Positions 33,175-58,752 of a DNA stretch of 64,000 bases are shown one piece after another (the first letter of the stretch is position 1; each line of letters starts with the position of its first letter). Origin of the DNA: Candidatus Flemingiibacterium sp. (GTDB lineage Bacteria; Bacillota; Clostridia; Oscillospirales; CAG-272); contig JAZNAL010000013.1 in assembly GCA_045586505.1 (NCBI GenBank), forward strand, positions 49,804-113,803. The letters run 5' to 3'. The notes below the pieces were generated by a model. It did not search any database. It was not told where the DNA came from and saw nothing but the letters and a program-made list of their open reading frames with translations. The position numbers and the translations under genes were made by a program.

Positions 33175-33194
33175 CTATTCACCCCCTATGGTTA

Positions 33195-33902: not shown

Positions 33903-33965
33903 CGTTATATTTCACCTCATATTTTGCATTGTAATCATCTTAAAAACTGCAACTAAATTTTGTTA

Positions 33966-34589: not shown

Positions 34590-34814
34590 ATAAGATAGCT
34601 CCTTTTTTGTAATCTACACACATATTATAGCACATAAAATCAACATTGTCAATATATTTTATTTATATATACAAAATTATCTCCAAACGGTTGACAAACG
34701 GGGCGTTTTGATGTAAAATATAATCAAAGTCAACCGAATGGTGACAAATAGAGCAAAATGGAGGTGATTAAACCTATCCTCTCAGTTCGGATTATTCCGA
34801 AAACCATTCCGAGT

Positions 34815-34973
34815 ATGGAAAAGAAATTACTGTGTGCCACAGTTCTTGATGCAGTCATACGTTTTTACGAGAATCCCGAAAACGAATCAGCATTTGAGAA
34901 GTGGTACGCAGAGAAAGGAGAAAACATATATGGACAAGAGAACAGCGGACATGCTTCGAGAAAAATACCCTAA
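34815..34973 (+). CDS. small hypothetical protein (uncertain)
   Basis: The ORF contains RFYENPENESAFEKWYAEKGE. It overlaps the next, better-supported ORF by 44 nt in another frame. Confidence 0.25.
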   Translation: MEKKLLCATVLDAVIRFYENPENESAFEKWYAEKGENIYGQENSGHASRKIP

Positions 34974-35160
34974 TCATATCCCTCTTAAGGTAGCATCGCA
35001 ATTCCTCGGCGTATCACCCCGACAGTTATCGATGCTTATTGCGGATAACCGCGAACCCTTTGCATCAATCGGTGCCAATATTGGAACCAGACAGAAGTAC
35101 GCCAGAATCTACACCGAAAGAATGATTGCCTATCTGAACGGTGAACTTCCGAATATTTAA
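34930..35160 (+). CDS. small HTH protein (excisionase/regulator-like)
   Basis: AAAGGAGA RBS 7 nt upstream of the ATG at 34930. The HTH-like segment is VASQFLGVSPRQLSMLIADN. Confidence 0.5.
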   Translation: MDKRTADMLREKYPNHIPLKVASQFLGVSPRQLSMLIADNREPFASIGANIGTRQKYARIYTERMIAYLNGELPNI

Positions 35161-35285
35161 GTGAGAAAGGCTCTTACTTGTATTGGAGGGTGGTTAGCTT
35201 CCTTGAAGGCAAAAAATAATTGTCAGGTGATATGACTGCACTTTTTGCTTTTCATATCACCTGATTTTTTCATATGGAGGTTATT

Positions 35286-36350
35286 ATGAAACTTCACGAC
35301 AACCAGTTATATCTTATACGGCACCTTATTCGTTTTCATTATCTTGATTATGAAAGCTGTCTTGACATACTTGATACCCAAAACACTCATGACAGAATTG
35401 CACTTTCCTATGTGTTCCGTCCGCTTACTAAAAATAGGTACATATCAAAGAATAAAGATGGCATTGTATCCGTACTGAAAAGAGGCAAGGCTTTATTTCC
35501 AAATGAAAAGCCGCTCGTATCCTCGGGTGGTGAAAAACAGCGTATTATTCAAGTGTCAAGGATGGTATCACTTTTGGAGCGAAACGGGATTACCATCACA
35601 GACACCATCCCGAACAGTCAAAATCCTCATTTCATTCCATCTGCTTGTTGGCGAGACATTGCTCCCGGAATACTTTCTACTACACGTTTTGTCGGAATGC
35701 TGTTGGCATACGGCAAGAAGTATGCTGTTTACGATATTGGTGACGGCAGTGTTGAATGGCAAGTTCGCGCGGAAAGTTCACTCTTTTACACAAAATACGG
35801 TTTGTATGAAACAAAGGCAGACGGAATGATACTTGTTTGTGATGATGACAAAAGAGAGGCTATCGCAACAAACATAATCCGTCAGACTATGTGGCATAGA
35901 AAAAGCCTGATGAATGAGAACTATACCGAGCGTGAAAGGCCGGTCCGTTTTTCAAGATCTCCGATAAAACTGCGAACACAATACGAGCACGTTTATCTTA
36001 CAACGCCGTCAACACTGAAAACATCATTATACCGCATATATACTGAAGATTCGGTGATTCAAGGTGTTATGGAAAATGGAGCAAAAACAAACGATCCGAA
36101 ATCAGGAGATTTTGAAATTTGGCCAAGCCGCTACTATGTAAATCCAGCATTTGACCTATTGAAACTGGTATATTTTTTCTCGGCTGTAAAACTGCATGTT
36201 GAAATGGATAAGGAAAGTTATGCTGTTTCAGAACTCACATATGCAATAGTGATGTACAAAAAGGATTTGTCCATCATTAAAATGTACCCGGATGTACTGC
36301 ATTCAGAAAGGGTGGTGCTTTATGAACTTGAATCTGATGAAGACTCTTAA
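35286..36350 (+). CDS. hypothetical protein with N-terminal winged-helix-like region (possibly replication-relaxation-like)
   Basis: GGAGG RBS. LYLIRHLIRFHYLDYESCLDIL resembles the N-termini of replication-relaxation family proteins. Weak assignment. Confidence 0.3.
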   Translation: MKLHDNQLYLIRHLIRFHYLDYESCLDILDTQNTHDRIALSYVFRPLTKNRYISKNKDGIVSVLKRGKALFPNEKPLVSSGGEKQRIIQVSRMVSLLERNGITITDTIPNSQNPHFIPSACWRDIAPGILSTTRFVGMLLAYGKKYAVYDIGDGSVEWQVRAESSLFYTKYGLYETKADGMILVCDDDKREAIATNIIRQTMWHRKSLMNENYTERERPVRFSRSPIKLRTQYEHVYLTTPSTLKTSLYRIYTEDSVIQGVMENGAKTNDPKSGDFEIWPSRYYVNPAFDLLKLVYFFSAVKLHVEMDKESYAVSELTYAIVMYKKDLSIIKMYPDVLHSERVVLYELESDEDS

Positions 36351-36924
36351 AAATATTGAGAAGAAGATTGCTGGTGACCGTATCCCCAAAATCGAAGAAT
36401 TGGAGAAAGCATACGAATACACACTGCGTTTGCGGAGTCAATTGATTTCGGTGATATATGATATCAGGCAGTATGTTGACACCGATAATCCAAAGGAAAA
36501 TATATCGGCAAAAGCATGCGGATATCATGCTGACAAAAAGGCAGTAGTATTAACGATCAGAGAGCCATTGCCGGCGATCAAAGAATTTACGGCTTCGGTG
36601 GAGGAACACTGGATAGAGATGATACACGGTGCTATTGCAGAGGCAAGCAAAGACGGTCTCCCAAATTTCGAAAAGGCGTTTGTCATGATTGAAATCACAA
36701 CCTCGAGGGGGACTGCTAATCATCAGGTGTGGGATACTTCGAACCGCGCTATCAACGTTATCATCAACAATCTCAAAGGCATATTCTTTAGAGATGATGA
36801 TTTCGAGCATATGGCTTTCGGTATTGCCGCAAAGTGGGGCGAAAATGCCAAGACGGTTATTAAAATCTGTGAATTTGACGAACGATTCAAAGCAAATCTT
36901 GATATCTTTTTCGAGGATCCATGA
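36322..36924 (+). CDS. hypothetical protein (weak RusA-like pattern)
   Basis: Start overlaps the previous stop. WDTSNRAINVIINNLKGIFFRDDD loosely resembles the RusA D.DN..K...D motif. Confidence 0.25.
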   Translation: MNLNLMKTLKNIEKKIAGDRIPKIEELEKAYEYTLRLRSQLISVIYDIRQYVDTDNPKENISAKACGYHADKKAVVLTIREPLPAIKEFTASVEEHWIEMIHGAIAEASKDGLPNFEKAFVMIEITTSRGTANHQVWDTSNRAINVIINNLKGIFFRDDDFEHMAFGIAAKWGENAKTVIKICEFDERFKANLDIFFEDP

Positions 36925-37106
36925 TACTTCTGAAATTACCATGGAGAAAAGATATGTAAGTTTGGAAACACGATGTAAAATGCCATGTAAAACCCGCATT
37001 GGCTCTGATAGGCGAAACTGTATGGCTGTCAGACCGTATCAAATTCAGAGAGGTTCAGAGAGGGGATTTCGCGCGAGCGTAATCCTCTCTCTGAACAAGC
37101 GGAAAT

Positions 37107-37156
37107 AAGCCCAACCTGAACTTGCCTTTTTCGCAGGCTTTGGTTGGGCTTTTTAA
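37107..37156 (+). terminator. intrinsic terminator
   Basis: Hairpin AAGCCCAACC/GGTTGGGCTT followed by T5. Confidence 0.65.
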
Positions 37157-37268
37157 AAACAACAGGACTTATGTAAATCATTGACGACTCATCCCTGCAA
37201 AAGTATGACATTGTTACGATGTGGTAAAATATATACACAGCATAATGAAACAGAGGAGTTGTCAAGTT

Positions 37269-38108
37269 ATGAAAAAAATCACTGATAAACTTATACAAAA
37301 CTTTAAAAATCACCTTATTAATGAAGAGAAAAGCAGTGCTACTATTGAGAAATATATCCGAGATATTTCCGCTTTTCTGGGGTGGCTTCACGGAAGAACT
37401 GTTGATAAAGCGACCGTTCTTGCATACAAAGCATATTTGGTAGAGCGTTACAAGCCGGCAAGCGTTAACTCGGTTATATCGTCCCTGAACAGTTTCTTTT
37501 CTTTTGGCGAATGGTACGATTGCAAGGTAAAATCTCTAAAAATACAAAAACAGATTTTTGCTTCAAAGGAAACCGAACTAACCAAGACAGAGTACGAGCG
37601 ACTGCTTGACGCAGCAAGGTCAAAGAAAAACGAGCGGCTGTTTCTGCTGATGCAGACAATCTGCTCGACCGGAATCCGCGTGTCGGAGCTGCGTTTTATC
37701 GATATAAACGCTGTAAACACAGGAGTTGCTAATATCAATTGCAAGGGCAAACTCCGTCAAGTGTTTTTGCCGAAAGTTCTTCGTAAGATGCTTACAAGGT
37801 ATGCAAAAGAGCAAAATATAAAAAGCGGTCCCGTGTTCGTATCGCGAACAGGTAAACCGCTTGATAGATCGAATATTTGGTCTGATATGAAAAAACTCTG
37901 CGAATCCGCAGGAGTATCAAAGGATAAGGTCTTTCCGCATAATCTTCGCCATCTTTTTGCACGCACTTACTATTCGCTCCAAAAAGATATTGTTCGTCTT
38001 GCAGATATACTCGGACATTCAAGCGTGAATACCACAAGAATCTATACAATGGAGACAGGAGAGGTGCACAAGAAGCATATCGAGAAATTAGGGTTGCTCA
38101 AATGCTGA
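37269..38108 (+). CDS. tyrosine site-specific recombinase (XerC/D-like; candidate invertase)
   Basis: N-terminal SAM-like domain (ATIEKYIRDISAFLGWL). Catalytic residues in GIRVSELRFI (R), HNLRHLFA (HxxR) and LGHSSVNTTRIY (H..Y). The stop lies 5 nt before inverted repeat IR-L. Confidence 0.9.
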   Translation: MKKITDKLIQNFKNHLINEEKSSATIEKYIRDISAFLGWLHGRTVDKATVLAYKAYLVERYKPASVNSVISSLNSFFSFGEWYDCKVKSLKIQKQIFASKETELTKTEYERLLDAARSKKNERLFLLMQTICSTGIRVSELRFIDINAVNTGVANINCKGKLRQVFLPKVLRKMLTRYAKEQNIKSGPVFVSRTGKPLDRSNIWSDMKKLCESAGVSKDKVFPHNLRHLFARTYYSLQKDIVRLADILGHSSVNTTRIYTMETGEVHKKHIEKLGLLKC

Positions 38109-38112
38109 AATA

Positions 38113-38134
38113 ACATAATCACTATTATGTGGTA
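38113..38134. repeat. left inverted repeat (IR-L) of invertible DNA segment
   Basis: ACATAATCACTATTATGTGGTA is the perfect reverse complement of 38358-38379. Confidence 0.9.
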
Positions 38135-38177
38135 AAAGTATTTGATATGGAATAATCCACCCCAATTACACCCATTT

Positions 38178-38206
38178 ATTATATCATAAATCGGGGTATA
38201 AGTCAA
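38178..38206 (-). promoter_or_regulatory. consensus promoter inside the invertible segment, currently pointing away from the surface-protein operon
   Basis: Minus strand TTGACT (rc 38206-38201), a 17-nt spacer, then TATAAT (rc 38183-38178). Confidence 0.7.
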
Positions 38207-38357
38207 TGATTTACATAAAAAATATAAATACTTTTTGAATTTAGGCATAACAAAGCCGACCAATGTAATTTTTGTTTTTTGCATTGGTCTTTTTGTGCTG
38301 CAATGATTACTATGAGTTTAATTTTTTAGAATGGCGTGAATTTACATGAGTTTTTTC

Positions 38358-38379
38358 TACCACATAATAGTGATTATGT
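38358..38379. repeat. right inverted repeat (IR-R) of invertible DNA segment
   Basis: TACCACATAATAGTGATTATGT is the perfect reverse complement of 38113-38134. The two repeats are 223 bp apart. Confidence 0.9.
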
Positions 38380-38397
38380 CATAGAGAGGATGAGTAT

Positions 38398-38949
38398 ATG
38401 AGCAAGGACGAATATATGATGATACGGGAAGAAATGATGTTTAACCAAAAACGTCAGGACAGTATTACGCAGTTTACATATACGACTGCAGTTGCGATAT
38501 GGGCGGCTGCACTAACCGTAAACAATGCGTGGATTGTTTACTCATCATTGTTTGTAACATTACTAATGGCATTAAGAATATCTGATTGCAGGAGAGCAAT
38601 TTCTTTTTTAGCCGGGTATATGAAAGTAATGTTAGAACCAAATATTGAATTTGAGTGGGAAACAATGAGTTGTAAGTACTATGAAACACATAGGAGAACC
38701 GCAATGGAATGGCTCTTATATGTGGGCTCAAAGTTTGATTTTGCAATTCTTAGTATCGTAAGTTCAATATTGTTTTGGGGACTTAGAGATTGGACTTTTA
38801 TAGTGCATGACTCTTTGATTTTGGCTTATGTGGTTTTAATTGTTCAAATTTTTATTGTAGCATTTGAAATTCTTCTTTATTTCAAATATTCAAGTGTTGC
38901 ATCAATGAAAAATAAATTTATTAGCAATTGGGAGGTTGTATTGAAATGA
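38398..38949 (+). CDS. hypothetical polytopic membrane protein
   Basis: GAGAGGA RBS. 183 aa with about 4-5 hydrophobic helices. It is the first gene after IR-R. Confidence 0.6.
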   Translation: MSKDEYMMIREEMMFNQKRQDSITQFTYTTAVAIWAAALTVNNAWIVYSSLFVTLLMALRISDCRRAISFLAGYMKVMLEPNIEFEWETMSCKYYETHRRTAMEWLLYVGSKFDFAILSIVSSILFWGLRDWTFIVHDSLILAYVVLIVQIFIVAFEILLYFKYSSVASMKNKFISNWEVVLK

Positions 38950-41900
38950 TGAAAAAAGATTTAATAATCCAAAAGACAGCACCTTGTAAAGCAGGTAAGA
39001 GAGTATTATCTGCGATTATGGCATTGGCAATGCTATGCACAATGATGTGCGGAATAACCGTTCCTGTAACGGCAACAAGCTATGAATTACTCAATCCTAT
39101 TACGGGAACTGTACAAGGTGCTGGTTATGACGAAACCGCGGGACATTACGGCATCGATTTGTATCCGTACAATTACGGTGATCCAGTATATGCAGTTGCA
39201 TCGGGAACAATTATGTATTCTTGTCCGAGAAATCACACGAAAGAATATCAATCCGGTGACGATTGCTGTACCGTAAAGATTATTCTTGACGAACCGATTA
39301 CATACAACGGCACAACATATGTGTGTGCATTCTATACACATATGTCCGCGCTTGTATATGACATTTACTGCGGTTACAAGGCAGCATGTGTAGAGGAATA
39401 TAACGCAGGGTTGCGTACAGATGCACTTCCTACCGAATCCGTTCACGTAGAAGCAGGCGACCTTATTGGATATGTCGGAAAAGGCAACGGTGCGACACAT
39501 CTTCATTTTTCCTTTGAAGCATCCGAGGCCGATGGATACGCTATGATGCCGAATAGTGAGTATTATGACGTATTCGAGTGGTGCTATAATGATAGTATTA
39601 CTGCTGGCGGCACGACAAGTGTATCGAACAATGTTGCTTCTGCATACTCAACGGGTATGACATTGACTCAGCTTCAAGCCAAATTCCCAGAGGGGAAATA
39701 TTGGAATGGAGGAAATGCTGATGGTTATACTTCCTATGCATGTACATGTCATGGTCAAGGAATATGTATTGCAGGAACGTCTCCATGCACTTGTAATCAC
39801 TTTCAAGGTGGTACGCAATGCAATGGATTCGCAAGGAAATTAGCGTATGATGCTTATGGTTCGCATTTGAGCACCTGGCAAACAACATCATCATCTAGTT
39901 ACGTGGATTCGCTCAAACCGGGAGATGTAGTATATAACGATTCGCCACACTGGTTTATGGTTATTTCGGTTAGCTCGGATTCGGTTACTGTAGGTGAATG
40001 CAACTGGGGAAGCAGATGTGTAATTAAATGGAGTAGAACAGTAAAAAAATCAACGATAAAAGGGTATGATGGATTAAATATTTTTATTGCTCCTTATTCA
40101 TTGACTAGTGGTTCTTCAACAAGTGTTCATACACATACATATTCCATAACTGAATATGAAGCAGCACATCCTCATAAGGCATATATTAAGTGCTCCTGTG
40201 GGGAGTTTGGTGGCTATACAGGAGCAACAAAGTATGTGTCTAGTTGTTCATCTTGTAGCGATACTTGCACTTGCTCCTCAAGTTACGCAGGAACATATAC
40301 ATGCATTACTACCAATTATCCTCTGACAATTCGTTCAGGACATGGAACAAGCTATGATGCAATTGGATCTATTCCTTCAGGTGCGTCAGTTACCGTTACA
40401 AGAGCTAACGGAAGTTGGGCTCACGTTACATATAATGGTGTAAGTGGATATGCTTCAATGGAATATTTGGCAAAGCCATATTCTACTTCAAGTGCATATC
40501 CTGTACCTTTTAAATGTTATACACTTTCTGATGACAATCATGCAGCAGACGCATTTGATGCTCCAAATGGTAATCATATTGGATATATTTACGGAACGGA
40601 TTATTGTACTGTAAAGGAGATATACTCAAACGGTTGGTGCTTGGTAAACGTACCGTGGGATAGCGGAACTAAGGATGTGTATACATATACGGGAAACTTT
40701 TTTAATACCTCTTTTACTCCTGTTATAGATGTTGTAGAATCATCGGGAAACACCTATATACGATACAATACATCAACTAGATTGGGAAATGTTGATGCTG
40801 GTGATAAAGTAACAATTGTAGATAGGTATGGGGTTCAAGTTCAGGCGATATATCCACACACCGATGGAACGTATCGCTGTGCTTGGATAAACGCATATCA
40901 TTTTGATCATACGCATACTCCAGGTGCTGCAGCGACTTGTACATCTCCACAAGTGTGTACAACTTGTGATGCGATAATCGCTGGTGTTACAAGCCACACA
41001 CCCGGTGCTGCTGCAACCTGTACTTCTAACCAAACTTGCACAGTTTGCGGAGTGATTTTGAATACGCAGACTGCACATACCCCCGGTGCTGCAGCCACTT
41101 GTACGACTGTTCAAAAGTGTACGGTTTGTGGAATTATACTTGCAGGAACTATAGAACATAGTTACACTGCTGGCGACTACACTGATCCTACCCATCCGCA
41201 TACTATTTACAATACTTGTGATTGTGGAGCAATGTCTGATTCGGGCTATTATGCGAAAGTTTTAAGTTGCACTGAATGTTATCCTACCCCTACAATATCG
41301 GGTATCACATACAGCCCGTCAACCGTAAAGGTGGGTGATACAGTAACATTTACTTTGAATGCTACCGGAGGTACAGAACACTGTATTTGTATCGGCGATG
41401 GAACCGATGAAATATTCAAGTCGCTGACAAGCTCTTGTACATATCAATTCACAAAAGCCGGTACCTATTACATTTACGGATGGGTAAGAAACGCAAGCGG
41501 AACAAAATATCCCGATACTGTTACCCTTGTTGTTGAAGATAATATTGTATCCGTAAACAGTGTATCTCTGAATAAGACAAGTGCAACCATTGATGTAGGC
41601 GATACACTGAACCTGACAGCGACTGTAGCCCCTTCAAATGCAACGAATAAGAATATTACTTGGAATTCCTCTAACACGAGCATCGCTTCTGTTTCAAACG
41701 GTGTTGTTACAGCAAAGTCGGCAGGAACTACAACGATAACCGCAACAACAGTGGATGCTTCAAAGACTGCTACCTGCATAGTCATCGTATCTGCACCGGA
41801 AGAACCGATAAATCCAAATGCCGCAGCAATAGTAGTAAATGATATTACTACAAGAGCAGGCGAAACATTTGATGTAACAGTAGATGTAGCAAATAATCCC

Positions 41901-42431
41901 GGTATGTGCTTCCTTCAGGTAACTCTTGAATATGATGAATCGGTGTTAACGCTGAAAGGTGCCTCCAATGGTTCTGTACTCTCAACTTTTGAAAATGGCG
42001 TAAACTTGCAATGGAGTGCAGATGCAGATACCTCAAAAAACGGCACTCTTGTTACTTTGACATTTGAAGTGAATGAAGATGCAGAGGCAGGAGAATACAC
42101 GGTAAACACAATTTTCCGTGAAGCGTACGATTCGGATCTGAATGATGTTGTCTTTACTGTCGCAGCCGGAACGATTACTGTCGCAGACTTTATCTACGGT
42201 GATGCTAACGGTGATGGTGAAGTAACTGGAAAGGATGCAGTGCTGCTTCGTAAATACATGGTGAATTACAATTACGATACAGGGACATCTTCTGTTGCGG
42301 TTTCCCCCGGAGCGGATGCCAATGGCGACGGTGAAGTAACTGGAAAGGACGCAGTACTGCTTCGCAAATACATGGTGAACTATAACTATGATACCGGAAC
42401 ATCATCAGTCGTTCTCGGTCCACAGCAGTAA
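38946..42431 (+). CDS. secreted multidomain peptidoglycan hydrolase: M23 peptidase + CHAP/NlpC-P60-like + SH3b + Cys-repeat + Big_2 + cohesin + dockerin
   Basis: Signal peptide. M23 motifs HYGIDL (HxxxD) and HLHFSF (HxH). CHAP-like QCNGFARKL ... PGDVVYNDSPHWFMVISV..GECNWG. SH3b (YPLTIRSGHGTSYDAIGSIPSGASVTV..WAHVTYNGVSGYA). Big_2 (VNSVSLNK..ITWNSSNTSIASV). Cohesin-like AGETFDVTVDVANNPGMCFLQVTLEYDESVLTL. Two dockerin EF-hand repeats DANGDGEVTGKDAVLLRKYMV. Confidence 0.8.
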   Translation: MMKKDLIIQKTAPCKAGKRVLSAIMALAMLCTMMCGITVPVTATSYELLNPITGTVQGAGYDETAGHYGIDLYPYNYGDPVYAVASGTIMYSCPRNHTKEYQSGDDCCTVKIILDEPITYNGTTYVCAFYTHMSALVYDIYCGYKAACVEEYNAGLRTDALPTESVHVEAGDLIGYVGKGNGATHLHFSFEASEADGYAMMPNSEYYDVFEWCYNDSITAGGTTSVSNNVASAYSTGMTLTQLQAKFPEGKYWNGGNADGYTSYACTCHGQGICIAGTSPCTCNHFQGGTQCNGFARKLAYDAYGSHLSTWQTTSSSSYVDSLKPGDVVYNDSPHWFMVISVSSDSVTVGECNWGSRCVIKWSRTVKKSTIKGYDGLNIFIAPYSLTSGSSTSVHTHTYSITEYEAAHPHKAYIKCSCGEFGGYTGATKYVSSCSSCSDTCTCSSSYAGTYTCITTNYPLTIRSGHGTSYDAIGSIPSGASVTVTRANGSWAHVTYNGVSGYASMEYLAKPYSTSSAYPVPFKCYTLSDDNHAADAFDAPNGNHIGYIYGTDYCTVKEIYSNGWCLVNVPWDSGTKDVYTYTGNFFNTSFTPVIDVVESSGNTYIRYNTSTRLGNVDAGDKVTIVDRYGVQVQAIYPHTDGTYRCAWINAYHFDHTHTPGAAATCTSPQVCTTCDAIIAGVTSHTPGAAATCTSNQTCTVCGVILNTQTAHTPGAAATCTTVQKCTVCGIILAGTIEHSYTAGDYTDPTHPHTIYNTCDCGAMSDSGYYAKVLSCTECYPTPTISGITYSPSTVKVGDTVTFTLNATGGTEHCICIGDGTDEIFKSLTSSCTYQFTKAGTYYIYGWVRNASGTKYPDTVTLVVEDNIVSVNSVSLNKTSATIDVGDTLNLTATVAPSNATNKNITWNSSNTSIASVSNGVVTAKSAGTTTITATTVDASKTATCIVIVSAPEEPINPNAAAIVVNDITTRAGETFDVTVDVANNPGMCFLQVTLEYDESVLTLKGASNGSVLSTFENGVNLQWSADADTSKNGTLVTLTFEVNEDAEAGEYTVNTIFREAYDSDLNDVVFTVAAGTITVADFIYGDANGDGEVTGKDAVLLRKYMVNYNYDTGTSSVAVSPGADANGDGEVTGKDAVLLRKYMVNYNYDTGTSSVVLGPQQ
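40914..41156 (+). repeat. three tandem 81-bp coding repeats (27-aa HTPGAAATCT..C..C units)
   Basis: Repeat units start at 40914, 40995 and 41076. Each encodes HTPGAAATCTxxQxCTxCxxI. Confidence 0.85.
42201..42410 (+). repeat. tandem duplicated dockerin segments (114-bp period)
   Basis: DANGDGEVTGKDAVLLRKYMVNYNYDTGTSSV is encoded twice, starting at 42201 and 42315. Confidence 0.85.
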
Positions 42432-42473
42432 TTCACATTTGGTTTAATAAAATACGAAAGAGGAAATATTACG

Positions 42474-45400
42474 ATGAAAAGATTTTGGTCATCAGTTTTG
42501 ATCTTTTTGATGGTGTTTAGCACCATTGTTATACCAGTAGAAGTAAGTGCGGCAGATGCACTTATGATAAGTGCCGACACACAATCTGCAGAAGCTGGAG
42601 AAACTGTCACAATTACACTGTCAGCTTCAAACAATCCTGGTCTGTCATTTTTGCAAGTGACGCTCCAGTATGACACATCTGTATTAACTCTCGAAAGTGC
42701 CACAAATGGAAACGTATTTTCTACCTTTGAAAAAGGCGTAAATCTTCAATGGAGTTCGGACGAAGATTCTACAAATAACGGAACACTCGCAACATTAAAA
42801 TTTAAAGTTACTGAAAATGCGGCTGTGGGGAGTTATGCCGTAAATGCAATCTTTCGCGAAGCATACGATTCGGATATCAATGATGTTGCCGTAGTCGTTA
42901 ATCCTGGTGCGGTAATCGTTACATCTGAACTTGTAGGCAAACAAACTGTAGCCGTTACCGCTCCTGTTAAAGGTGCAGTTCCGCAGGCTACAATCGCCGC
43001 TGGAAGCGGATACACAGGAACAATCGCTTGGGAAGGAAATCCCACAAAGTTTGCAGCGGATACTGTTTATGTCGCAAACATTACACTCACCGCGGCAGAT
43101 TGGTACGTTTTTGCTCCAACCGCAACCGGTAGTGTCAGCGGCGCAACTGTTACGAATAACTCTGTTTCAAGTGACGGAAGCACTCTGACATTCAAGGCAA
43201 CATTCCCGAATACCGCAGGTAAAGATACTCCTGCTTGTACCGCACCTGCGAATGTAACAGCAACCTATGGTCAGAAGCTCTCCGATATTACACTTACCAA
43301 TCCCGCAGGTAATACCACAGGCACTTGGACTTGGGCAGCTCCTACGACCTCTGTCGGAAATGTCGGAACAAAGACCTTCAAGGCAACATTTACACCAACT
43401 AATACAAACGATTATGTAGCTGTTGAGAATATCGATGTATCCGTTACGGTAAAGCCCAAGCCAATTACCGTTACTGTCGATAACATTGCCGATCAGCAGT
43501 ATACCGGTAGTCAGATCAAGCCTACAGTTACAGTAAAGGGCGATGGCAAGACTCTCGTTCTTAACACTGATTACACTGTCGAGTACGGCACAAACAAAAA
43601 CGTTGGTGCAACTGGCGGTTCTGTAACCGTTAAAGCAAAATCCGGCAGTAACTATACTTTCAGCAACACCACAGAGAACTTCAATATTGTTGCCCAAGCA
43701 GGTCAGGTTACAATCAGTGGAAATCTTAATGTAACTTATCCTAACACTGTTCCCAACGCAACGATTGATAAGCATGGCAGTGACGGCAGCGTAACCGTAT
43801 ACTACTACACCAACGAAGCCTGCACCAGCGGTAGGACAACTACCAAGCCTACCAATACAGGCAACTATTGGGCAAAAGCTGAAATGGCAGCCGGAACTAA
43901 CTATGGCTCTGCTGTAAGTAATGTCCTCGCATTTACTATTTCCCGTGCAAGCATAACACCTAGTGTTTCTATTGCAAATTGGACTTATCTCGGCAACGCA
44001 AGTACTCCATCCGTTACAGGCAACACCGGCAACGGCACTGTAACCTATCAGTACAAGGCTAAGGACGCTAACGATAATACATACACTGCAACGGTTCCCA
44101 CTAAAGCAGGTGATTACACCATTAAGGCTACTGTGGCACAGAGCTCGAACTATAACGGTGCAACTGCAACAGCAGATTTCAAGATCAACCCCAAGAATAT
44201 CTCCGAGGTGACGATTGACGCAATTGCTGATCAGACCTATACCGGCAATGCAATCACTCCCAAGCCTTCTGTTAAGGATGGCATCACTCCGCTCGTTCTC
44301 GACACTGATTTTACATACAGTTATGAGAATAATACCAATGTAAGTACTACCGCAACCGTTAAGGTAGTCGGTAAAGGTAACTACACCGGCACTGCAAGCA
44401 AAACCTTTACTATCATTCGCAAAGATCTTTCCATTACAGTAAGCATAACAGGATGGACTGTTGGCGGTACACCTAACGCTCCTGCTGTTACAGGTAATCT
44501 CGGCAACGGTGCTGTAACTTATCAGTACAAGGTTAAGGGTGCAGCAGATAGCACATATTCTGCTACAGTTCCGACAGCTGTAGGCAACTACACAGTAAAG
44601 GCGACCGTAGCACAGACTGCAAATTATAACGGCGCTACCGCAACAACCGATTTTGCTATCAGCACAAAATCGGCACAGAACATTACCGCTGACAATGTAA
44701 CAGTTACCTACGGCGACTCCGGAAAGAAAGTTTCCGGTACAACCAACGGTAACGGAACAATCAGCTATGCTGTAAAGAGCGGTTCCGATGTTGTAGAGGT
44801 CAACAGCACGACCGGTGCACTGACCATCAAGAAGGTTGGTACGGCTACTATCACTGTTACTGCATCTGAAACAACTTCTCATGCAGCAGCTACAAAGGAC
44901 ATTACCGTAACCGTCAACCCCAAGAAGATTACCGCACCTGCGGCTGACACCACTGTTTATACCTATAACGGAAGCGAACAGACCTACAAGATCACAGCAA
45001 ATGATGCTTATACCGTAACAGGTAACAAGCAGACTGCGGCTAATGAAACAGGTTACACTGTAACCGTAGCTCTCAAAGATAAGGTGAACTATCAGTGGAG
45101 TGATGGTTCCACTGAAGATCAGACATACACCTTCATCATAAAGAAGGCAAGTGTTACTGCACCGGCAGCTAACAATACGACTTTCGCATATACCGGAAAA
45201 GAGCAGACCTACTCTCTTACTGCAAATGATGCTTATACCATCACCGGGAACAAGCAGACTGCGGCTAACGAAACCGGCTACACCGTAACAGTGGCTCTTA
45301 AGGATAAGGTAAACCGTCAGTGGAGCGATGGCACTACCGATGACAAAACCTACACCTTCATTATTAAGAAAGCAACTATTACAATTACCGCAAAGAACAA

Positions 45401-46460
45401 GAGTGCATATACTGGAAATACTGCGCCTACCCTCGGTGATAGCGATTATACAGTAACCGGACTTGTAAACGGCGAGACACTGAAAACAAAGCCCACCATC
45501 GCTTATGAAACTACACCGGATATGAGCAAGGCTGGTACAACTAATATCCTTGTTTCCGATGCTGTAGCTCCCGATGGCAGCAACTACAATGATATCGTAT
45601 ATATCAGCGGTACATTGACAATAGCGAAAGATGCCGATGAATATGAGTGGTTGTGGTATTACCTCATGGTACTCCAGAGCCAGAAATTCGATGTTACGGC
45701 AACCGCAACCGCAGGAGGCGAAATTGATCCTGCCGGTGTGAGCAAGGTACAGTATTCCAAGAGCATTACCTATACCATCACTCCCGATGCCGGCTATGCA
45801 ATCAAGTCTGTTCTCGTAGACGGCGAGGATGTTGGCTCTGCCAGCGAATACACCTTCAAGAACGTTACCAAGAAACATACTATTCACGCTGTCTTTGAAC
45901 AAGTCAATCCCTACACCGACATAAAAGCTGACGATTGGTTCTATGATGATGTGCTTTATGTAACTTCTAAGGGCCTGATGGAAGGTACAGGTAACGGCAA
46001 GTTCTCTCCCGAAATTTCCACCGACCGCGCGATGCTCGTAACGGTTCTGTGGAGACTGGAAGGCTCTCCTGTTGTTGACAATCCTGTTGATTTCCTCGAC
46101 GTTGCAGACGGACTGTGGTACTCTGATGCTATCGATTGGGCTTCCGCAAACGGCATCGTAAACGGTTACGGTGATGGCAGATTCGGCCCCACCGACACAA
46201 TTACCCGTGAACAGATGGCAACCATCATGTGGCGTTATGCAAAGTACAAGGGATACGATGTATCGGTCGGCGAGAACACCGACATTCTCTCCTACACCGA
46301 CGCTGAAACGGTAAGCGATTGGGCAATTCCTGCAATGCAGTGGGCGTGCAGCAAAGATATGATTAAGGGTATTGTAAATAACATTCTTGATCCTGCCGGC
46401 GACGCAACCCGAGCACAAATTGCAGCAATTCTGTATCGTTTCTGCCAGACAATCAAATAA
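42474..46460 (+). CDS. cell-wall-anchored cohesin protein: N-terminal cohesin + many Ig-like/MBG-type repeats + C-terminal triple SLH
   Basis: Signal peptide. The cohesin-like domain is clearly paralogous to the one in the upstream gene (AGETVTITLSASNNPGLSFLQVTLQYDTSVLTL). Repeats of the YTG..I.P.V.V..G...L...DYTV.Y type are present. The C-terminal SLH repeats read YTDIKADDWFYDDVLYV.., FLDVADGLWYSDAIDWA.., YTDAETVSDWAIPAMQWA... Confidence 0.8.
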   Translation: MKRFWSSVLIFLMVFSTIVIPVEVSAADALMISADTQSAEAGETVTITLSASNNPGLSFLQVTLQYDTSVLTLESATNGNVFSTFEKGVNLQWSSDEDSTNNGTLATLKFKVTENAAVGSYAVNAIFREAYDSDINDVAVVVNPGAVIVTSELVGKQTVAVTAPVKGAVPQATIAAGSGYTGTIAWEGNPTKFAADTVYVANITLTAADWYVFAPTATGSVSGATVTNNSVSSDGSTLTFKATFPNTAGKDTPACTAPANVTATYGQKLSDITLTNPAGNTTGTWTWAAPTTSVGNVGTKTFKATFTPTNTNDYVAVENIDVSVTVKPKPITVTVDNIADQQYTGSQIKPTVTVKGDGKTLVLNTDYTVEYGTNKNVGATGGSVTVKAKSGSNYTFSNTTENFNIVAQAGQVTISGNLNVTYPNTVPNATIDKHGSDGSVTVYYYTNEACTSGRTTTKPTNTGNYWAKAEMAAGTNYGSAVSNVLAFTISRASITPSVSIANWTYLGNASTPSVTGNTGNGTVTYQYKAKDANDNTYTATVPTKAGDYTIKATVAQSSNYNGATATADFKINPKNISEVTIDAIADQTYTGNAITPKPSVKDGITPLVLDTDFTYSYENNTNVSTTATVKVVGKGNYTGTASKTFTIIRKDLSITVSITGWTVGGTPNAPAVTGNLGNGAVTYQYKVKGAADSTYSATVPTAVGNYTVKATVAQTANYNGATATTDFAISTKSAQNITADNVTVTYGDSGKKVSGTTNGNGTISYAVKSGSDVVEVNSTTGALTIKKVGTATITVTASETTSHAAATKDITVTVNPKKITAPAADTTVYTYNGSEQTYKITANDAYTVTGNKQTAANETGYTVTVALKDKVNYQWSDGSTEDQTYTFIIKKASVTAPAANNTTFAYTGKEQTYSLTANDAYTITGNKQTAANETGYTVTVALKDKVNRQWSDGTTDDKTYTFIIKKATITITAKNKSAYTGNTAPTLGDSDYTVTGLVNGETLKTKPTIAYETTPDMSKAGTTNILVSDAVAPDGSNYNDIVYISGTLTIAKDADEYEWLWYYLMVLQSQKFDVTATATAGGEIDPAGVSKVQYSKSITYTITPDAGYAIKSVLVDGEDVGSASEYTFKNVTKKHTIHAVFEQVNPYTDIKADDWFYDDVLYVTSKGLMEGTGNGKFSPEISTDRAMLVTVLWRLEGSPVVDNPVDFLDVADGLWYSDAIDWASANGIVNGYGDGRFGPTDTITREQMATIMWRYAKYKGYDVSVGENTDILSYTDAETVSDWAIPAMQWACSKDMIKGIVNNILDPAGDATRAQIAAILYRFCQTIK

Positions 46461-46469
46461 TTCATTTAT

Positions 46470-46510
46470 AGAAGAAACCACACTCTACAAAATAGAGTGT
46501 GGTTTCTTCT
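46470..46510 (+). terminator. intrinsic terminator of the surface-protein operon
   Basis: Hairpin AGAAGAAACCACACTCT/AGAGTGTGGTTTCTTCT. Confidence 0.75.
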
Positions 46511-46658
46511 ATATGGAGACATTTTTTAAGTTTTATTCAACTCAATAGTTATAATTCTTAACACTAATTATAATTCACAAAGAATGTGTAGATTGCTGGA
46601 AAATTATGTGATATAATACACTTTAGTAAAGATATTTGGTGCCATGGGAGAAATAATT

Positions 46659-46802
46659 ATGATGCTAGATATATCTGATACGCAATTTAAAAGAATTTTC
46701 TCTAACCCTAAATTTTATCTTCCTATTCGCTGGGATAATAAAGACTTTTTATATACATTAAAGGCGTTAATGTGGATGGGTGTGTTGTTTGTGTTATTGT
46801 AA
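46659..46802 (+). CDS. possible 47-aa small protein with hydrophobic C-terminus (below the ORF-track cutoff)
   Basis: GGGAGA RBS. MMLDISDTQFKRIFSNPKFYLPIRWDNKDFLYTLKALMWMGVLFVLL. Confidence 0.25.
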   Translation: MMLDISDTQFKRIFSNPKFYLPIRWDNKDFLYTLKALMWMGVLFVLL

Positions 46803-46942: not shown

Positions 46943-47566
46943 ATGGTAAATACAGTAGTGGATATTAGTGAATTTTACCAGACAATCAATGATATTGAAA
47001 CTTTAGGATTTGACACACATTTGTTTATCAACGCAATTAACAAAATATATAATTCGCCTATTTTTATATTAATAAATGATAAAACTGAAGATAAGGTTTT
47101 ACCATCTGATGAATTAAATTCATTGCGAATTTTGGGTACACCGGTCTATGTATCTGTTACGCAAATTAAAGACAATTTAAAAAGTGATTTTTTCAATATG
47201 GTACTACGTATTTTTTTAAATAGTATTTCTAAACAAAATAGAGAAATGGTTGTTTCTTTGCTTGAACAGTTGTTGCCTCAAATAATTGCAAGCATACACT
47301 ACATTACTAAAGAAGAAAGATGTATGTATGCTATTGCAATAGAATTTTATTTAAGAGATAGTCAAAAGTTTCATAGCCCCGAGGAATTCAAACCCAAGCT
47401 GTTAGAAAATTATTGTGATAACCTTACCGTAAACTGCTCACATAGAAAGAACACAAAATGTTTTATTAGTATGGAGCGAGTGTATAATTCGTTAAATAGT
47501 TTAGAAAGCAAGCATATATTAGAGAGGAACAAGGAAACAAATGGGTACAAATACATACGATGGTAA
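46943..47566 (+). CDS. hypothetical protein, component A of a two-gene module
   Basis: 207-aa AT-rich ORF with a strong RBS. No recognisable catalytic motif. The C-terminal VYNSLNSLESKHILERNKETNGYKYIRW looks winged-helix-like. It overlaps the next gene by 26 nt. Confidence 0.6.
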   Translation: MVNTVVDISEFYQTINDIETLGFDTHLFINAINKIYNSPIFILINDKTEDKVLPSDELNSLRILGTPVYVSVTQIKDNLKSDFFNMVLRIFLNSISKQNREMVVSLLEQLLPQIIASIHYITKEERCMYAIAIEFYLRDSQKFHSPEEFKPKLLENYCDNLTVNCSHRKNTKCFISMERVYNSLNSLESKHILERNKETNGYKYIRW

Positions 47567-49277
47567 TGAAGTAATGATAAACAATAACAATGATGACTTG
47601 TTTTCCACTGCTTCCTTTGAGCCAGAGGCAATTGAAATTTTAACTGCGGATGATGTATATGGTGCAACTGCTGATATTTTAGAGAAAGAATTTGAGAGTC
47701 TTTATGAAATAAAGCAAAACTTGGAAACATCAGGAGCTACAAAATCAGCAGTTATATTTCGAGATATTCTATGGAAAATACTTTTTAGGAATAATGAAAA
47801 TATCCCCACTCCTTTTATTATTTTAAAAGAGTCGTTTCATATTAACAGAGTGTATTATGATAGTTATAGTTCTCATCTTTCTGCCAAGCATTTTCCACGC
47901 AAGCAATATTGCAAGAGACTATTCTTTTTAAGTTGTCCAATATACTCTGATGACCTTTTTGATAAAAGTGAAAACGAGTTGTGTGATTTACTAATAGGTT
48001 CTTGTGTTATAAGACCGTCTCTTGAAAACGAGAACATTATTGGGCAAACGCTTTTGAATCCAAAATGTTTTGAAAAATGGAAAAACGAATATATATGCAC
48101 AGCTTCATACAAATTAACTATGTTCGGTAAACGTGTAAGTCTCGAAGCATTTCCTTATATGATGCAAGATGGGGAAGTTATTACTTGTGCAGAAACAACT
48201 TTAATTCATTTGTTGGATTATTTTAGTAATCGTTATAGTTCATACAGATCCGTAGTTCCCAGTGATTTGTTTGAAATTGAAAAAGAGCTATCTTTTGAAC
48301 GTATTATTCCAAGTAAAGGGATGACTTATAAAACAGTTTCACATCTTTTGACCAAGTTAAACTTTCATCCTAAATTATATGGTTTTGATAATAATGATAC
48401 AATTGTAGATAAAAGAACTATGCATCATTATATTGATTCGGCGATCCCAGTCGCAGTAAGTTTGAATCCAGGGAATGCCGAACAATCCCACTCAATTGTT
48501 GCTATAGGAATATCAAAAACTTTATTGCCGATAAATAAGGTGTCCTCTAAATTAAAGCCACAAAATGGATTGTATTTTCTAGATATTTCGGATTTGTATT
48601 ATGAATATATAGTTATGAATGATTCTTCTGCACCTTATACAAAGATATCTATGGTTACAGATGGTTGCAAAGAAAAGAGATTTAAATTCCAAATAGAAAA
48701 TACAGTTGGAAATTTTGAAATTTCATCAATAATTGCTCCTTTGGCAAAAAGAATGTATCTAGACGATTTTAAGGCTTCGGAAATTGCATTAAGTTTTATT
48801 TCAAATGATAATGTAGGAATAAAAAAGGCAATTGAAATGGCTGGTATTGATGAATATAGCCAGTTGGGATTGACTAAAAATGATCCTATATTGTATCGCT
48901 TGTTTTTGGTAAGAGCCGGTAGTTTTAGAAGAAAACGATCGTTTAACTTAAAGAAAAAAACCTTGCGATGGACGGTATATAGTAGTATTCCTTTGCCAAA
49001 ATTTGTTTGGGTATGTGAATTGTATAGCAAGTCTTCGTTGGAAAAAGGGAAAGCAATTGGAGAAGTGGTTATTGATGCTACTGCGAGTGAAATGGATGGA
49101 ATTTCAAGTGCAATAATACTAAATTATCCAGGTTGCTTTTCCTATCGTACTCCGGAAGAATCATTTGATATTTTTGTAAAACGATATGAATCCAATGATC
49201 AACCGACCGATTGGTCGCTAATTGAACCATATATACATTTTCAAGAACCCCAAGAGGAATATTTAGAAAATAATTAA
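47541..49277 (+). CDS. hypothetical protein with central papain-fold (C39-like) cysteine peptidase signature, component B
   Basis: 578 aa. FPYMMQDGEVITCAETTLIHLLDYF shows a Q..C nucleophile context as in C39/papain-like peptidases. A downstream AEQSHSIVAIG is a candidate catalytic His. The N- and C-terminal regions are unassigned. Confidence 0.5.
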   Translation: MGTNTYDGNEVMINNNNDDLFSTASFEPEAIEILTADDVYGATADILEKEFESLYEIKQNLETSGATKSAVIFRDILWKILFRNNENIPTPFIILKESFHINRVYYDSYSSHLSAKHFPRKQYCKRLFFLSCPIYSDDLFDKSENELCDLLIGSCVIRPSLENENIIGQTLLNPKCFEKWKNEYICTASYKLTMFGKRVSLEAFPYMMQDGEVITCAETTLIHLLDYFSNRYSSYRSVVPSDLFEIEKELSFERIIPSKGMTYKTVSHLLTKLNFHPKLYGFDNNDTIVDKRTMHHYIDSAIPVAVSLNPGNAEQSHSIVAIGISKTLLPINKVSSKLKPQNGLYFLDISDLYYEYIVMNDSSAPYTKISMVTDGCKEKRFKFQIENTVGNFEISSIIAPLAKRMYLDDFKASEIALSFISNDNVGIKKAIEMAGIDEYSQLGLTKNDPILYRLFLVRAGSFRRKRSFNLKKKTLRWTVYSSIPLPKFVWVCELYSKSSLEKGKAIGEVVIDATASEMDGISSAIILNYPGCFSYRTPEESFDIFVKRYESNDQPTDWSLIEPYIHFQEPQEEYLENN

Positions 49278-49784: not shown

Positions 49785-50831
49785 ATGAGAAAGTTTGATT
49801 ATTCGTTTTTAAATAACGGTTTGTTACCTGCTAATCTAATAAACTTGACATCAAGTATTGCATCTCTTAAAACAATGGCTGGGGTACGTAAAGAAGAGTA
49901 TGCAAAGATTTTCACTGAGCTTGAAGCAGTGGCAAAAGTGCAGTCTGTTAAAAGCTCTAATGCCATTGAGGGCATCGTTACAAGTGATGAGCGTATTGCC
50001 GCTATCGTTAATCAGGATAGTGCCCCGCTCAATCATACTGAAGGTGACATTGCCGGATACCGTGATGCACTTAATGCTATTCACTTAAATCACGATAACC
50101 TTGATTTGCGTGAATCTGACATTTTGAGACTGCATCAAACAATGATGCAGATAGCAGGTTACGAATATGGCGGTCAATATAAGACCGGAGATAATTATAT
50201 TATTGAGGAAGATAAGGACGGAAACAGAAACGTAAGATTTAGACCAACTCCCGCTAATGAAGTAAAGGAAGCAATGGAGCAGTTGGAGCTTGCTTATATG
50301 GAAGCACGAAACGATGCTAACATCAATCAGCTTTTGCTTATTCCTTGTGTTATTCTTGACTTTTTGTGTATTCACCCGTTCAGAGATGGCAATGGAAGAA
50401 TGTCAAGACTCATATCATTGCTATTGCTTTACAAAAACGGATATGACGCAGGAAAATATGTTTCCTTTGAAGAGCAGATAAATAATTACAAAGGCTTTTA
50501 TTATGAAGCCCTCAGAGAATCTTCAATAGGTTGGCACGAGAATCAAAACACATACGTTCCTTTTATTGAAAATTTCTTGTCCACTCTTTATATGTGCTAC
50601 AAAGAACTTGATAAGCGTTTTGCGGTTGTAAATGGTAAAAAGATTACAAAGACAGCAAGAATTGAAGCAACCGTTTTGAATAGCCTTGTACCCATATCAA
50701 AGGCGGAGATTTGTGACGTTTTGCCAGATGTAAGCCCTACAACCGTTGAAGCGATTTTAAGCGTTATGGTAAAGAAAGGGCAGATTAAAAAGATTGGACA
50801 AGCAAGGATGACGAGGTATATTAAAGTTTAA
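49785..50831 (+). CDS. Fic-family protein (AMPylase-type) with N-terminal inhibitory-helix motif and C-terminal wHTH
   Basis: Fic motif HPFRDGNGRMSRL. The N-terminal SSNAIEGI fits the (S/T)xxxE(G/N) auto-inhibition motif. The C-terminus is wHTH-like. Confidence 0.85.
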   Translation: MRKFDYSFLNNGLLPANLINLTSSIASLKTMAGVRKEEYAKIFTELEAVAKVQSVKSSNAIEGIVTSDERIAAIVNQDSAPLNHTEGDIAGYRDALNAIHLNHDNLDLRESDILRLHQTMMQIAGYEYGGQYKTGDNYIIEEDKDGNRNVRFRPTPANEVKEAMEQLELAYMEARNDANINQLLLIPCVILDFLCIHPFRDGNGRMSRLISLLLLYKNGYDAGKYVSFEEQINNYKGFYYEALRESSIGWHENQNTYVPFIENFLSTLYMCYKELDKRFAVVNGKKITKTARIEATVLNSLVPISKAEICDVLPDVSPTTVEAILSVMVKKGQIKKIGQARMTRYIKV

Positions 50832-50848
50832 ATAAGGAAGTAGATGTT

Positions 50849-52411: not shown

Positions 52412-52453
52412 CAGAAATATGTAGAAAGTGATTGATTGTTAAAGGATATAGAC

Positions 52454-53185: not shown

Positions 53186-53191
53186 GGGTAT

Positions 53192-54456: not shown

Positions 54457-54463
54457 GCGTAGA

Positions 54464-54506
54464 AAAACCTACCACCTAAGCCACTATGACTTAGGTGGTA
54501 GGTTTT
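54464..54506 (+). terminator. intrinsic terminator of the Fic-SIR2 operon
   Basis: Hairpin AACCTACCACCTAAG/CTTAGGTGGTAGGTT followed by a T-run. Confidence 0.75.
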
Positions 54507-54559
54507 CTGTAAATGCAAAGACATTCTTCACAATGTGTAAGGTTCGTCTTTGCGTGTTT

Positions 54560-54634
54560 TGGTGACCCGTACGGGAATCGAACCCATGTTTCCGCCTTGA
54601 GAGGGCGGCGTCTTAGCCGCTTGACCAACAGGCC
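54560..54634 (-). tRNA. tRNA-Glu (anticodon CUC)
   Basis: rc = GGCCTGTTGGTCAAGCGGCTAAGACGCCGCCCTCTCAAGGCGGAAACATGGGTTCGATTCCCGTACGGGTCACCA. It forms a cloverleaf with anticodon loop CUCUCAA and an encoded CCA. It has its own TTGACA-17-TATAAT promoter (rc 54681-54653). Confidence 0.85.
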
Positions 54635-58748: not shown

Positions 58749-58752
58749 GAAA

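Follow-up and report, generated by a model that had tools for sequence, protein, structure and literature searches.

In Ruminococcus flavefaciens, the protein RflaF_05439 carries two NlpC/P60 modules together with an X-dockerin, and it binds the wall-anchored ScaE cohesin (PMC3573020). Bensoussan et al. described dockerins on putative DD-carboxypeptidases and lysozymes, for which roles in attack or defence were suggested (PMC6487960). A cohesin and a dockerin can also occur within one enzyme, as in Amy4 of the Ruminococcus bromii amylosome, where the dockerin binds the enzyme's own cohesin, allowing multimerisation, as well as a wall-anchored scaffoldin (PMC4611034). Here we describe a related locus from Candidatus Flemingiibacterium sp., an operon at positions 38398-46460 of a 64,000-nucleotide stretch of DNA (the window; NCBI GenBank assembly GCA_045586505.1, contig JAZNAL010000013.1, positions 49,804 to 113,803 of the forward strand). 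Its three genes, all on the + strand, encode a membrane protein, a cargo protein with two heads of lytic type, and a surface anchor. We read this locus, with a probability of roughly 0.65, as an operon for phase-variable surface display that is carried on a mobile element and in which a peptidoglycan hydrolase is docked on a stalk anchored by S-layer homology (SLH) repeats. An earlier note on the same DNA, made by a model from the sequence, had set such a module against the usual role of cohesin-dockerin pairs, the assembly of glycoside hydrolases; given the three studies cited above, that framing overstates its novelty.

The likeness to RflaF_05439 extends to secretion, a C-terminal dockerin, a surface anchor with a single cohesin, and a pair of peptidase-like heads (papain-fold, except that head 1 is here an M23 domain), and in both cases the function is a proposal. 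The organisms are also related, both being of the Ruminococcaceae/Oscillospiraceae type. The present cargo differs from RflaF_05439 in having an SH3b domain and its own cohesin and in lacking an X module, and its anchor is of the non-covalent SLH type rather than one with a sortase signal. It also belongs to a dedicated cargo-anchor operon, which lies on a mobile element, behind an invertible promoter and outside any cellulosome gene set. The combination of a cohesin and a dockerin in one catalytic protein is shared with Amy4; however, Amy4 is a GH13 amylase whose self-recognition was shown by experiment, whereas here we infer it.

Single-cohesin anchors with SLH repeats are familiar from Clostridium thermocellum as the OlpA/OlpC type. 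The anchor described here shares their plan, with the cohesin at the N-terminus and three SLH repeats at the C-terminus, and it would likewise tether single dockerin-bearing enzymes to the cell surface. Unlike in OlpA/OlpC, the clients are not glycoside hydrolases, a stalk of about 985 amino acids (aa) separates the cohesin from the SLH repeats, and there are several exchangeable cohesin types that track the neighbouring dockerin. The cargo, for its part, recalls lysostaphin, zoocin A and the modular staphylococcal and streptococcal endolysins, which combine M23 (HxxxD and HxH motifs) and/or CHAP domains with SH3b. Two lytic heads in one polypeptide are known from the phage 2638A endolysin and from LysK-type enzymes. 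These are all free-secreted or phage-released proteins of 25-55 kDa, whereas the cargo has 1161 aa, spacers, a cohesin-dockerin tail and a dedicated anchor. As for control, the Clostridioides difficile gene cwpV has an invertible switch acted on by the tyrosine recombinase RecV, with a terminator in its leader and with RecV encoded elsewhere. In both systems, a tyrosine recombinase and short inverted repeats serve to invert a regulatory segment ahead of the gene for a large clostridial surface protein that is bound to the wall non-covalently; the present one differs from cwpV in that the segment holds a promoter and in that the gene of the recombinase directly adjoins the repeat.

Our search of the full-text literature returned no paper uniting M23, dockerin, cohesin and SLH, and none tying a dockerin to an invertible promoter. 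The concept itself has precedents in RflaF_05439, Amy4 and the SLH-cohesin anchors, and it is thus unusual, not unprecedented. So far, there seems to be no description of a cargo that joins M23, CHAP-like and SH3b domains to a cohesin of its own, of cohesin and dockerin types that switch in concert, or of an operon dedicated to cargo and anchor, its control by promoter inversion and its carriage on a serine-recombinase element.

Cargo and anchor proteins

The stop codon of the membrane protein gene and the start codon of the cargo gene (38946-42431) overlap in an ATGA, an arrangement of translational coupling. The anchor gene (42474-46460; 1328 aa, with cohesin, stalk and three SLH repeats) follows the cargo gene after a gap of 42 nt that contains a good ribosome-binding site, and a perfect 18-bp stem-loop directly 3' of the anchor stop (46468-46513, + strand) is the probable end of the operon. 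Given the overlap, the short gap with its ribosome-binding site and the hairpin, we take the three genes to be read as one operon. A consensus terminator scan made no call at the stem-loop, because the latter has no T-run. The cargo starts at the ATG at 38946, which yields the 1161-aa product also found as database protein P0001, and not at a TTG at 38928. The Pfam positions given below for the cargo refer to the 1167-aa translation from that TTG, and subtracting 6 converts them to the 1161-aa numbering.

The cargo opens with a predicted signal peptide (38946-39077, ending in PVTA/TS), which was recognised by reading the sequence and from the aligned N-termini of 17 relatives, and the protein is thus presumably Sec-secreted. 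Head 1 (39078-39590) is an M23 metallopeptidase domain with a Cys-containing insert. Its Pfam score (PF01551) is marginal, at 31.1 bits against a cut-off of 28.7, because of this insert. The motif H67-Y-G-I-D71 (HxxxD), the mid-domain catalytic His (H132) and the motif H185-L-H187 (HxH) are invariant in an alignment of 16 relatives, and the family profile puts both blocks of M23 motifs in register with those of zoocin A and lysostaphin; a match of the head profile to Crov588 in the PDB was discarded as a repeat artefact. The AlphaFold 2 (AF2) model of head 1 is poor (predicted local distance difference test score, pLDDT, 26-51), probably owing to the same insert, but M23 structures were nonetheless among the Foldseek matches. 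The M23 assignment therefore rests on the motifs and the marginal Pfam score.

Head 2 (39612-40121, aa 223-392) is a divergent cysteine peptidase or amidase domain, similar to CHAP and NlpC/P60. It has no match to Pfam CHAP (PF05257) or NLPC_P60 at E <= 0.1, and a direct phmmer search of the cargo against the PDB matched neither head. A profile of the head 2 family, however, had as its seven best PDB matches (E <= 0.21) NlpC/P60 or CHAP proteins throughout, among them 6b8c (1.5e-3), Spr/MepS, the PlyGRCS endolysin, Gsp amidase and a putative cell-wall hydrolase. The residues C292 (in QCxGFA), H335 and N353, which stand in papain-like order, are invariant across 36 diverse homologues, and the family motif reads KFPxGKYWN...QCxGFA...H...ECN. 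The AF2 model of this head is confident (pLDDT 88.5, predicted template-modelling score, pTM, 0.85), and its best Foldseek matches are CHAP domains, with 2k3a leading (E = 2.6e-4), followed by the Ly7917 endolysin (5d74) and PcsB (4cgk), at probabilities of 0.98-1.0. The TM-scores of these matches are low (0.3-0.42), however, and we have therefore filed head 2 as a putative divergent member of the CHAP/NlpC-P60 superfamily and not as a Pfam CHAP domain.

The family to which head 2 belongs is large, with 94 domains among 240 proteins retrieved, and has no Pfam model; in cohesin-dockerin proteins, the domain often comes directly behind the signal peptide. In 5 relatives it is replaced by a second M23 domain, and in P0022 and P0042 it comes after a canonical CHAP domain. 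This exchange with M23 and proximity to CHAP supports a lytic role for head 2. The relatives come from metagenome-assembled genomes (MAGs) of Ruminococcus, Clostridia and Ca. Flemingiibacterium, and two of them, P0007 and P0012, have the same heads fused straight to SLH repeats. Searches of phage and plasmid collections gave a weak cyanophage match to M23 and a CHAP-like match in a "RICIN domain-containing protein" of a Ruminococcus albus 7 plasmid (NC_014824.1).

Beyond the heads lies an SH3b domain of the wall-binding type (SH3_3; 40308-40490; 48.6 bits, aa 466-514), which also matches the SH3 domain of a "cell wall hydrolase" in the PDB (2kq8, E = 3.6e-9). The middle region that follows (40491-41549) is conserved in relatives and has no Pfam family; it consists of a domain at aa 516-650, three Cys-rich repeats of 27 aa and one beta-rich module. 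The tandem repeats (HTPGAAATCTxxQxCTxCG, at 40896-41285) have His and Cys positions that are invariant across relatives and may be small Zn-binding modules; much longer arrays of Cys-rich repeats are found in P0007 and P0012. Next comes a Big_2 Ig-like domain (41550-41801; 54.6 bits, aa 876-952; PDB 7quz, E = 1.6e-17).

The tail of the cargo comprises a cohesin and a dockerin. The cohesin (41811-42185; PF00963, aa 968-1085), which we call type A, scores 39.5 bits against a cut-off of 24.1 and covers positions 3-139 of the 139-position profile. The dockerin (42186-42428; PF00404, Dockerin_1, aa 1090-1149) scores 43.3 bits against a cut-off of 22.9 and matches more than 25 solved type I dockerins, with E values down to about 3e-5. 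Its two halves (42201-42296 and 42315-42410), 38 aa apart, each consist of a 12-residue Ca-binding loop, DANGDGEVTGKD, and a helix (AVLLRKYMVNY...). All 32 of their 32 amino acids are identical, while 16 of 96 nucleotides differ, every one of them synonymously, and Tandem Repeats Finder detected no DNA repeat in the dockerin; the identity of the halves thus exists at the protein level only. This pattern points to strong selection for equivalent halves, and it suggests a symmetric dockerin maintained as expected for dual binding, rather than a recent duplication.

The anchor has a predicted signal peptide (42474-42551, from reading the sequence) followed by an N-terminal cohesin, also of type A (42552-42938). 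This domain had no direct Pfam match at E <= 0.1, but it is a paralogue of the cargo cohesin, with 53% identity over 143 aa (E = 3e-40), and a 21-sequence profile seeded on it, in which the cargo cohesin was included, matched 37 solved cohesins with E values down to 8.8e-14. The top match was 3ul4_A, the cohesin of a C. thermocellum "cellulosome-anchoring protein". The stalk (42939-45893) is made up of about 985 aa of repeated beta-rich modules, as judged from internal repeats and weak matches to MBG_2 and MBG_3. Three SLH repeats (45894-46457; PF00395, 90.4 bits in three stretches), which provide a non-covalent wall anchor, complete the protein and match the SLH structures of Bacillus anthracis Sap with E values of about 1e-9. 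A chromosomal gene at 5523-9290 encodes a protein of 1255 aa in which an N-terminal SLH repeat is the only domain recognised; this protein, perhaps an S-layer or other wall protein of the host, shows SLH anchoring to be native there.

The architecture proposed in the earlier note was confirmed by these searches in all but one detail, with every domain call at the coordinates given. The two lytic-type heads with SH3b were borne out by the intact M23 motifs and, for the Cys/His pair of the CHAP-like head, by profile and fold, and Pfam placed Big_2, cohesin and C-terminal dockerin where the note had them. The double dockerin motif, the paralogous cohesin and the three SLH repeats on the neighbouring protein were likewise found, and the cohesin and dockerin regions, for which the note had named other folds as the refuting outcome, proved genuine in profile searches against solved structures. 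The exception is its "long Ig-like repeat stalks", where the long repeats held and "Ig-like" was unsupported, the only matches being the weak MBG-type ones. Within the 64-kb window no further cohesin or dockerin is encoded. Cargo and anchor have one cohesin each and no glycoside hydrolase or carbohydrate-binding module, and judged by this domain content the locus is not a cellulosome or amylosome, although it would work like one.

Cohesin and dockerin types across loci

Homologues of the anchor (cohesin, stalk and SLH; 1255-1350 aa) are common in uncultured Clostridia of the Ruminococcaceae/Oscillospiraceae type, a search for them having given more than 1000 matches. We compared eight anchor loci, namely the window, L007, L008, L011/L012, L013, L014, L015 and L016, and found that in all eight the gene directly upstream of the anchor ends in a dockerin. 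The heads of these upstream proteins are diverse: M23 with CHAP-like, CHAP-like alone, two CHAP domains, leucine-rich repeats (LRR) of the LRR_5/BspA type, or Flg_new.

Across these loci the cohesins and dockerins fall into discrete types that switch together, independently of the stalk and the SLH repeats. The stalk in the window shares 83-87% identity with those of L007, L011 and L013, and at least five cohesin/dockerin types occur among anchor homologues with near-identical stalks. Between the window and L013, identity is 91% in the dockerin, 96% in the anchor cohesin, 85% in the stalk and 90% in the SLH repeats; L007 and L011 likewise share one type (dockerin 82%, anchor cohesin 72%, stalk 87%), with SLH repeats that are only 34% identical. 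The window and L007, which carry the same mobile element, present the converse case, in that stalk (83%) and SLH repeats (96%) are similar whereas dockerin (24%) and anchor cohesin (27%) are not. The DNA replaced between these two, at 41785-42941 of the window, corresponds exactly to the cargo cohesin, the dockerin and the anchor cohesin, and its counterpart in L007, at about 9350-10500, is of an unrelated type. In L013, where the cargo lacks a cohesin and differs in its body, a type-A dockerin nevertheless stands beside a type-A anchor. Dockerin and cohesin identities co-vary across the loci with a Pearson r of 0.87, an indicative value rather than a formal test. A search with the type-A dockerin gave 9 matches, all of them short fragments.

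From this co-variation, rather than from adjacency alone, the cargo dockerin is predicted to dock on the anchor cohesin. The docking proposed in the earlier note is thereby backed by the agreement of types, and binding itself stays a matter of inference.

The cargo cohesin resembles the anchor cohesin of its own locus, with 47-57% identity in 4 of the 8 loci, although the resemblance is weak in L008 (29%). Identity to anchor cohesins of other types is at most about 30%, and it is 46-50% between L007 and L011, which are of one type. Furthermore, L011 has three cohesin-dockerin cargos ahead of one single-cohesin anchor. Since the cargo cohesin is of the anchor's type and three cargos precede one anchor in L011, daisy chains are plausible, in which the cargo cohesin would accept the dockerin of another cargo, so that anchor cohesin, cargo, and further cargo are joined in series. 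Other relatives hold additional parts: in L002 (12118-14984) and L004 (12447-13163), small adaptors of cohesin-dockerin or cohesin-cohesin-dockerin build are encoded after an M23 cargo gene, and these relatives also have a further cohesin protein with Cys-rich repeats. No domains of carbohydrate-active enzymes were found among the genes scanned at the two loci, and the adaptors hint at multi-tier, scaffoldin-like networks.

The invertible promoter and the mobile element

Upstream of the operon is a gene for a tyrosine recombinase (37221-38108, + strand; Phage_integrase, 98.9 bits), the candidate invertase, which ends 2 nt before the left arm of an inverted repeat. The arms (38110-38137 and 38355-38382) are 28 nt long, 93% complementary and 217 nt apart. 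The segment between them (38138-38354) contains, on the minus strand, a strong sigma-70-like promoter identified by promoter scan, TTGACT-17-TG-TATAAT from 38206 to 38178, which has 11 of 12 consensus matches and an extended -10 and points away from the operon. The recombinase is kept in L006 and L007 (626 and 638 bits). In L006, a Ca. Flemingiibacterium MAG with the inverton at 9156-9430, the segment is reversed within colinear flanks, so that the promoter lies on the + strand and faces the operon, whereas in L007 (inverton at about 6600-6880) its orientation is as in the window. The occurrence of both orientations shows that both switch states exist in nature, and we presume that the copies in the window and L007 are OFF and that in L006 is ON. 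Inverted repeats, an internal promoter, an adjacent recombinase and two orientations, all features of an inverton, are thus present together.

A search of metagenomes with the repeat core found 3 loci, none with the same operon and only one, L019, with a full inverton. There (4817-10403), the 20-nt core flanks a segment of about 350 bp beside a more distant relative of the tyrosine recombinase, upstream of a gene for a 1424-aa Pectate_lyase_5 protein, which is of pectate-lyase fold and adhesin-like. This arrangement implies that the recombinase/inverton family controls other large surface proteins as well.

The operon and its switch form part of an element of about 15 kb (about 31651-46762) that is common to the window, L006 and L007. 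A large serine recombinase (31648-33174, minus strand; Resolvase, Recombinase and Zn_ribbon_recom) lies at its left end, and the rest consists of a gene resembling a helix-turn-helix repressor, two unknown genes, the tyrosine recombinase and the operon. Similarity to L006 and L007 sets in abruptly at 31651/31652, while the left flanks differ from genome to genome; an open reading frame (ORF) of 235 aa at 33195-33902 is missing from both of these relatives. The guanine-plus-cytosine (GC) content of the element is lower than that of the chromosome, and it is inserted after thrS, between thrS and a defence island. The same block in different flanks in three genomes, together with the low GC content, supports accessory, mobile status. 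Both the accessory element and the inverton control that the earlier note had assumed are therefore upheld, the former by the different sites in three genomes and the latter by the two orientations in related genomes. A prophage origin of cargo and anchor was considered and rejected, as no relatives of either were found among the viral contigs of IMG/VR.

The first gene of the operon (38398-38949) encodes a hydrophobic membrane protein of 183 aa, whose hydropathy profile has two broad hydrophobic regions at about aa 41-65 and 131-170. It has no match in Pfam, NCBIfam, PHROGs or PADLOC, and its conservation is limited to L006 and L007; an immunity protein, a holin, or a factor in export or regulation are candidate roles.

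On the far side of the element, the defence island (49785-61044) contains a SoFic-like Fic protein (49785-50831), a ResIII-Mrr nuclease (50849-52411), a SIR2-like protein (53192-54064) and a complete Shango system (SngA/B/C at 55147-56898, 56886-58256 and 58630-61044). Three ORFs of 207, 578 and 249 aa at 46943-49277 and 52436-53185 lie in a low-GC stretch (32-35% GC); they have no match in Pfam, PHROGs or PADLOC, except for a sub-threshold one of the 207-aa ORF to TPR_Trm732.

Proposed function and its alternatives

Taken together, these features suggest the following mechanism. The anchor would be exported by Sec and held at the wall by its three SLH repeats, with the stalk of about 985 aa presenting the terminal cohesin. 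The cargo, also exported by Sec, would bring its M23 and CHAP-like heads, SH3b, spacers, cohesin and C-terminal symmetric dockerin, and the dockerin, as the co-variation of types suggests, would plug into the anchor cohesin and so place a peptidoglycan hydrolase at the tip of the stalk. By paralogy and the precedent of Amy4, the cargo cohesin may then take the dockerin of a further cargo, building a daisy chain. The tyrosine recombinase would act as an expression switch by flipping the 217-bp promoter segment, the window copy being presumed OFF. Once displayed, the hydrolase may act on peptidoglycan beyond the producer's sacculus, that is, on neighbours or wall debris, in antagonism or scavenging.

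That the target lies outside the producer's own sacculus, rather than in its own wall, we consider an even bet. The accessory mobile operon, the phase variation and the long stalk argue against a housekeeping autolysin and favour outside material. Sister operons, however, carry LRR/BspA-type or other non-lytic cargo, which makes the system a general display platform, for which a weapon is one reading. The most pointed version of that reading, a new kind of device for contact-dependent antagonism in Gram-positive gut anaerobes, in which daisy-chained hydrolases on an SLH mast lyse neighbours (a mobile, phase-variable lysin on a stalk, with cohesin and dockerin types serving as strain-specific loading labels), seems to us rather unlikely.

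Several of our observations weigh against the display of a docked hydrolase, or against parts of it. The non-lytic LRR cargo of sister operons weakens the link between platform and killing. The co-variation draws on eight non-independent loci, and two same-type pairs drive the r of 0.87. The linker between cargo cohesin and dockerin is very short, which leaves the role of the cargo cohesin ambiguous. As for the heads, the Pfam score of M23 is barely above the cut-off and its AF2 model is poor, while head 2 is outside Pfam CHAP and has low Foldseek TM-scores (0.3-0.42). Finally, the strong promoter faces away from the operon in this assembly, and a weaker promoter-like site on the + strand overlaps the right repeat, so that the ON/OFF assignment is an indirect one.

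Alternatively, the cargo could be an autolysin that remodels or splits the producer's own peptidoglycan during separation, turnover or perhaps sporulation and germination, with docking serving to retain it near the wall, as in SLH-anchored autolysins. M23, CHAP and SH3b domains are as standard in autolysins as in bacteriolysins, the Foldseek matches include PcsB and DipM/LytM-type proteins, the host has SLH anchoring of its own (the protein at 5523-9290), and it is a spore former (SpoIVA). We nevertheless doubt this explanation, since the related genomes that were examined lack the mobile element at this position of the chromosome and since the operon is switched ON and OFF, both of which fit a housekeeping function poorly; the stalk would also hold the heads far from the producer's own wall, and homologous operons exchange the lytic cargo for LRR-type proteins. 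This last exchange, in turn, is what an adhesion or co-aggregation platform would lead one to expect, in which heads and SH3b bind other walls, host or food particles, catalysis is secondary or lost, and switching evades immunity or phage. The commonest heads in related operons are indeed LRR_5 (BspA-type) and other non-enzymatic repeats, the related recombinase and repeat core of L019 stand beside an adhesin-like protein of pectate-lyase fold, and phase-variable surface proteins are typically adhesins or antigens. Nevertheless, the catalytic residues do not vary within the family in either head, which argues for retained catalysis, and within the cargo family head 2 has been swapped only for lytic domains (M23, CHAP), so that we hold simple adhesion to be improbable.

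It could also be that cargo and anchor are neighbours and not partners, the dockerin binding a scaffoldin encoded elsewhere, the anchor taking other dockerins, and their adjacency and paralogy reflecting local duplication. The window shows 64 kb of a contig that is at least 114 kb long, the small adaptor genes in L002 and L004 indicate that more complex networks exist, and the relative P0005 is found alone beside uvrB, without an adjoining anchor. Nonetheless, dockerin and adjacent anchor-cohesin types agree in every informative comparison and are replaced as one DNA cassette, and the L013 anchor is matched in type by its neighbour's dockerin despite a cohesin-less cargo with a different body. 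Given these results, we regard this explanation as very improbable, and docking of the hydrolase on the SLH-anchored stalk is the reading that we prefer.

Cohesin-dockerin pairs have mostly been seen as machinery for plant fibre and starch, and here they would serve as a general, exchangeable system of surface display. Its sister operons occur in MAGs of uncultured Clostridia from gut and rumen sources, several of them named Ruminococcus/Ruminococcaceae or Oscillospiraceae, and its cargo ranges from LRR proteins to a double lysin resembling lysostaphin and endolysins, with socket and plug swapped as a cassette. The CHAP-like family that lacks a Pfam model is worth curating, and the matched cohesin and dockerin types are candidate orthogonal parts for synthetic surface display. 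If the lysin does act on other cells, the operon would offer a new and tractable route by which gut bacteria antagonise one another or scavenge necromass.

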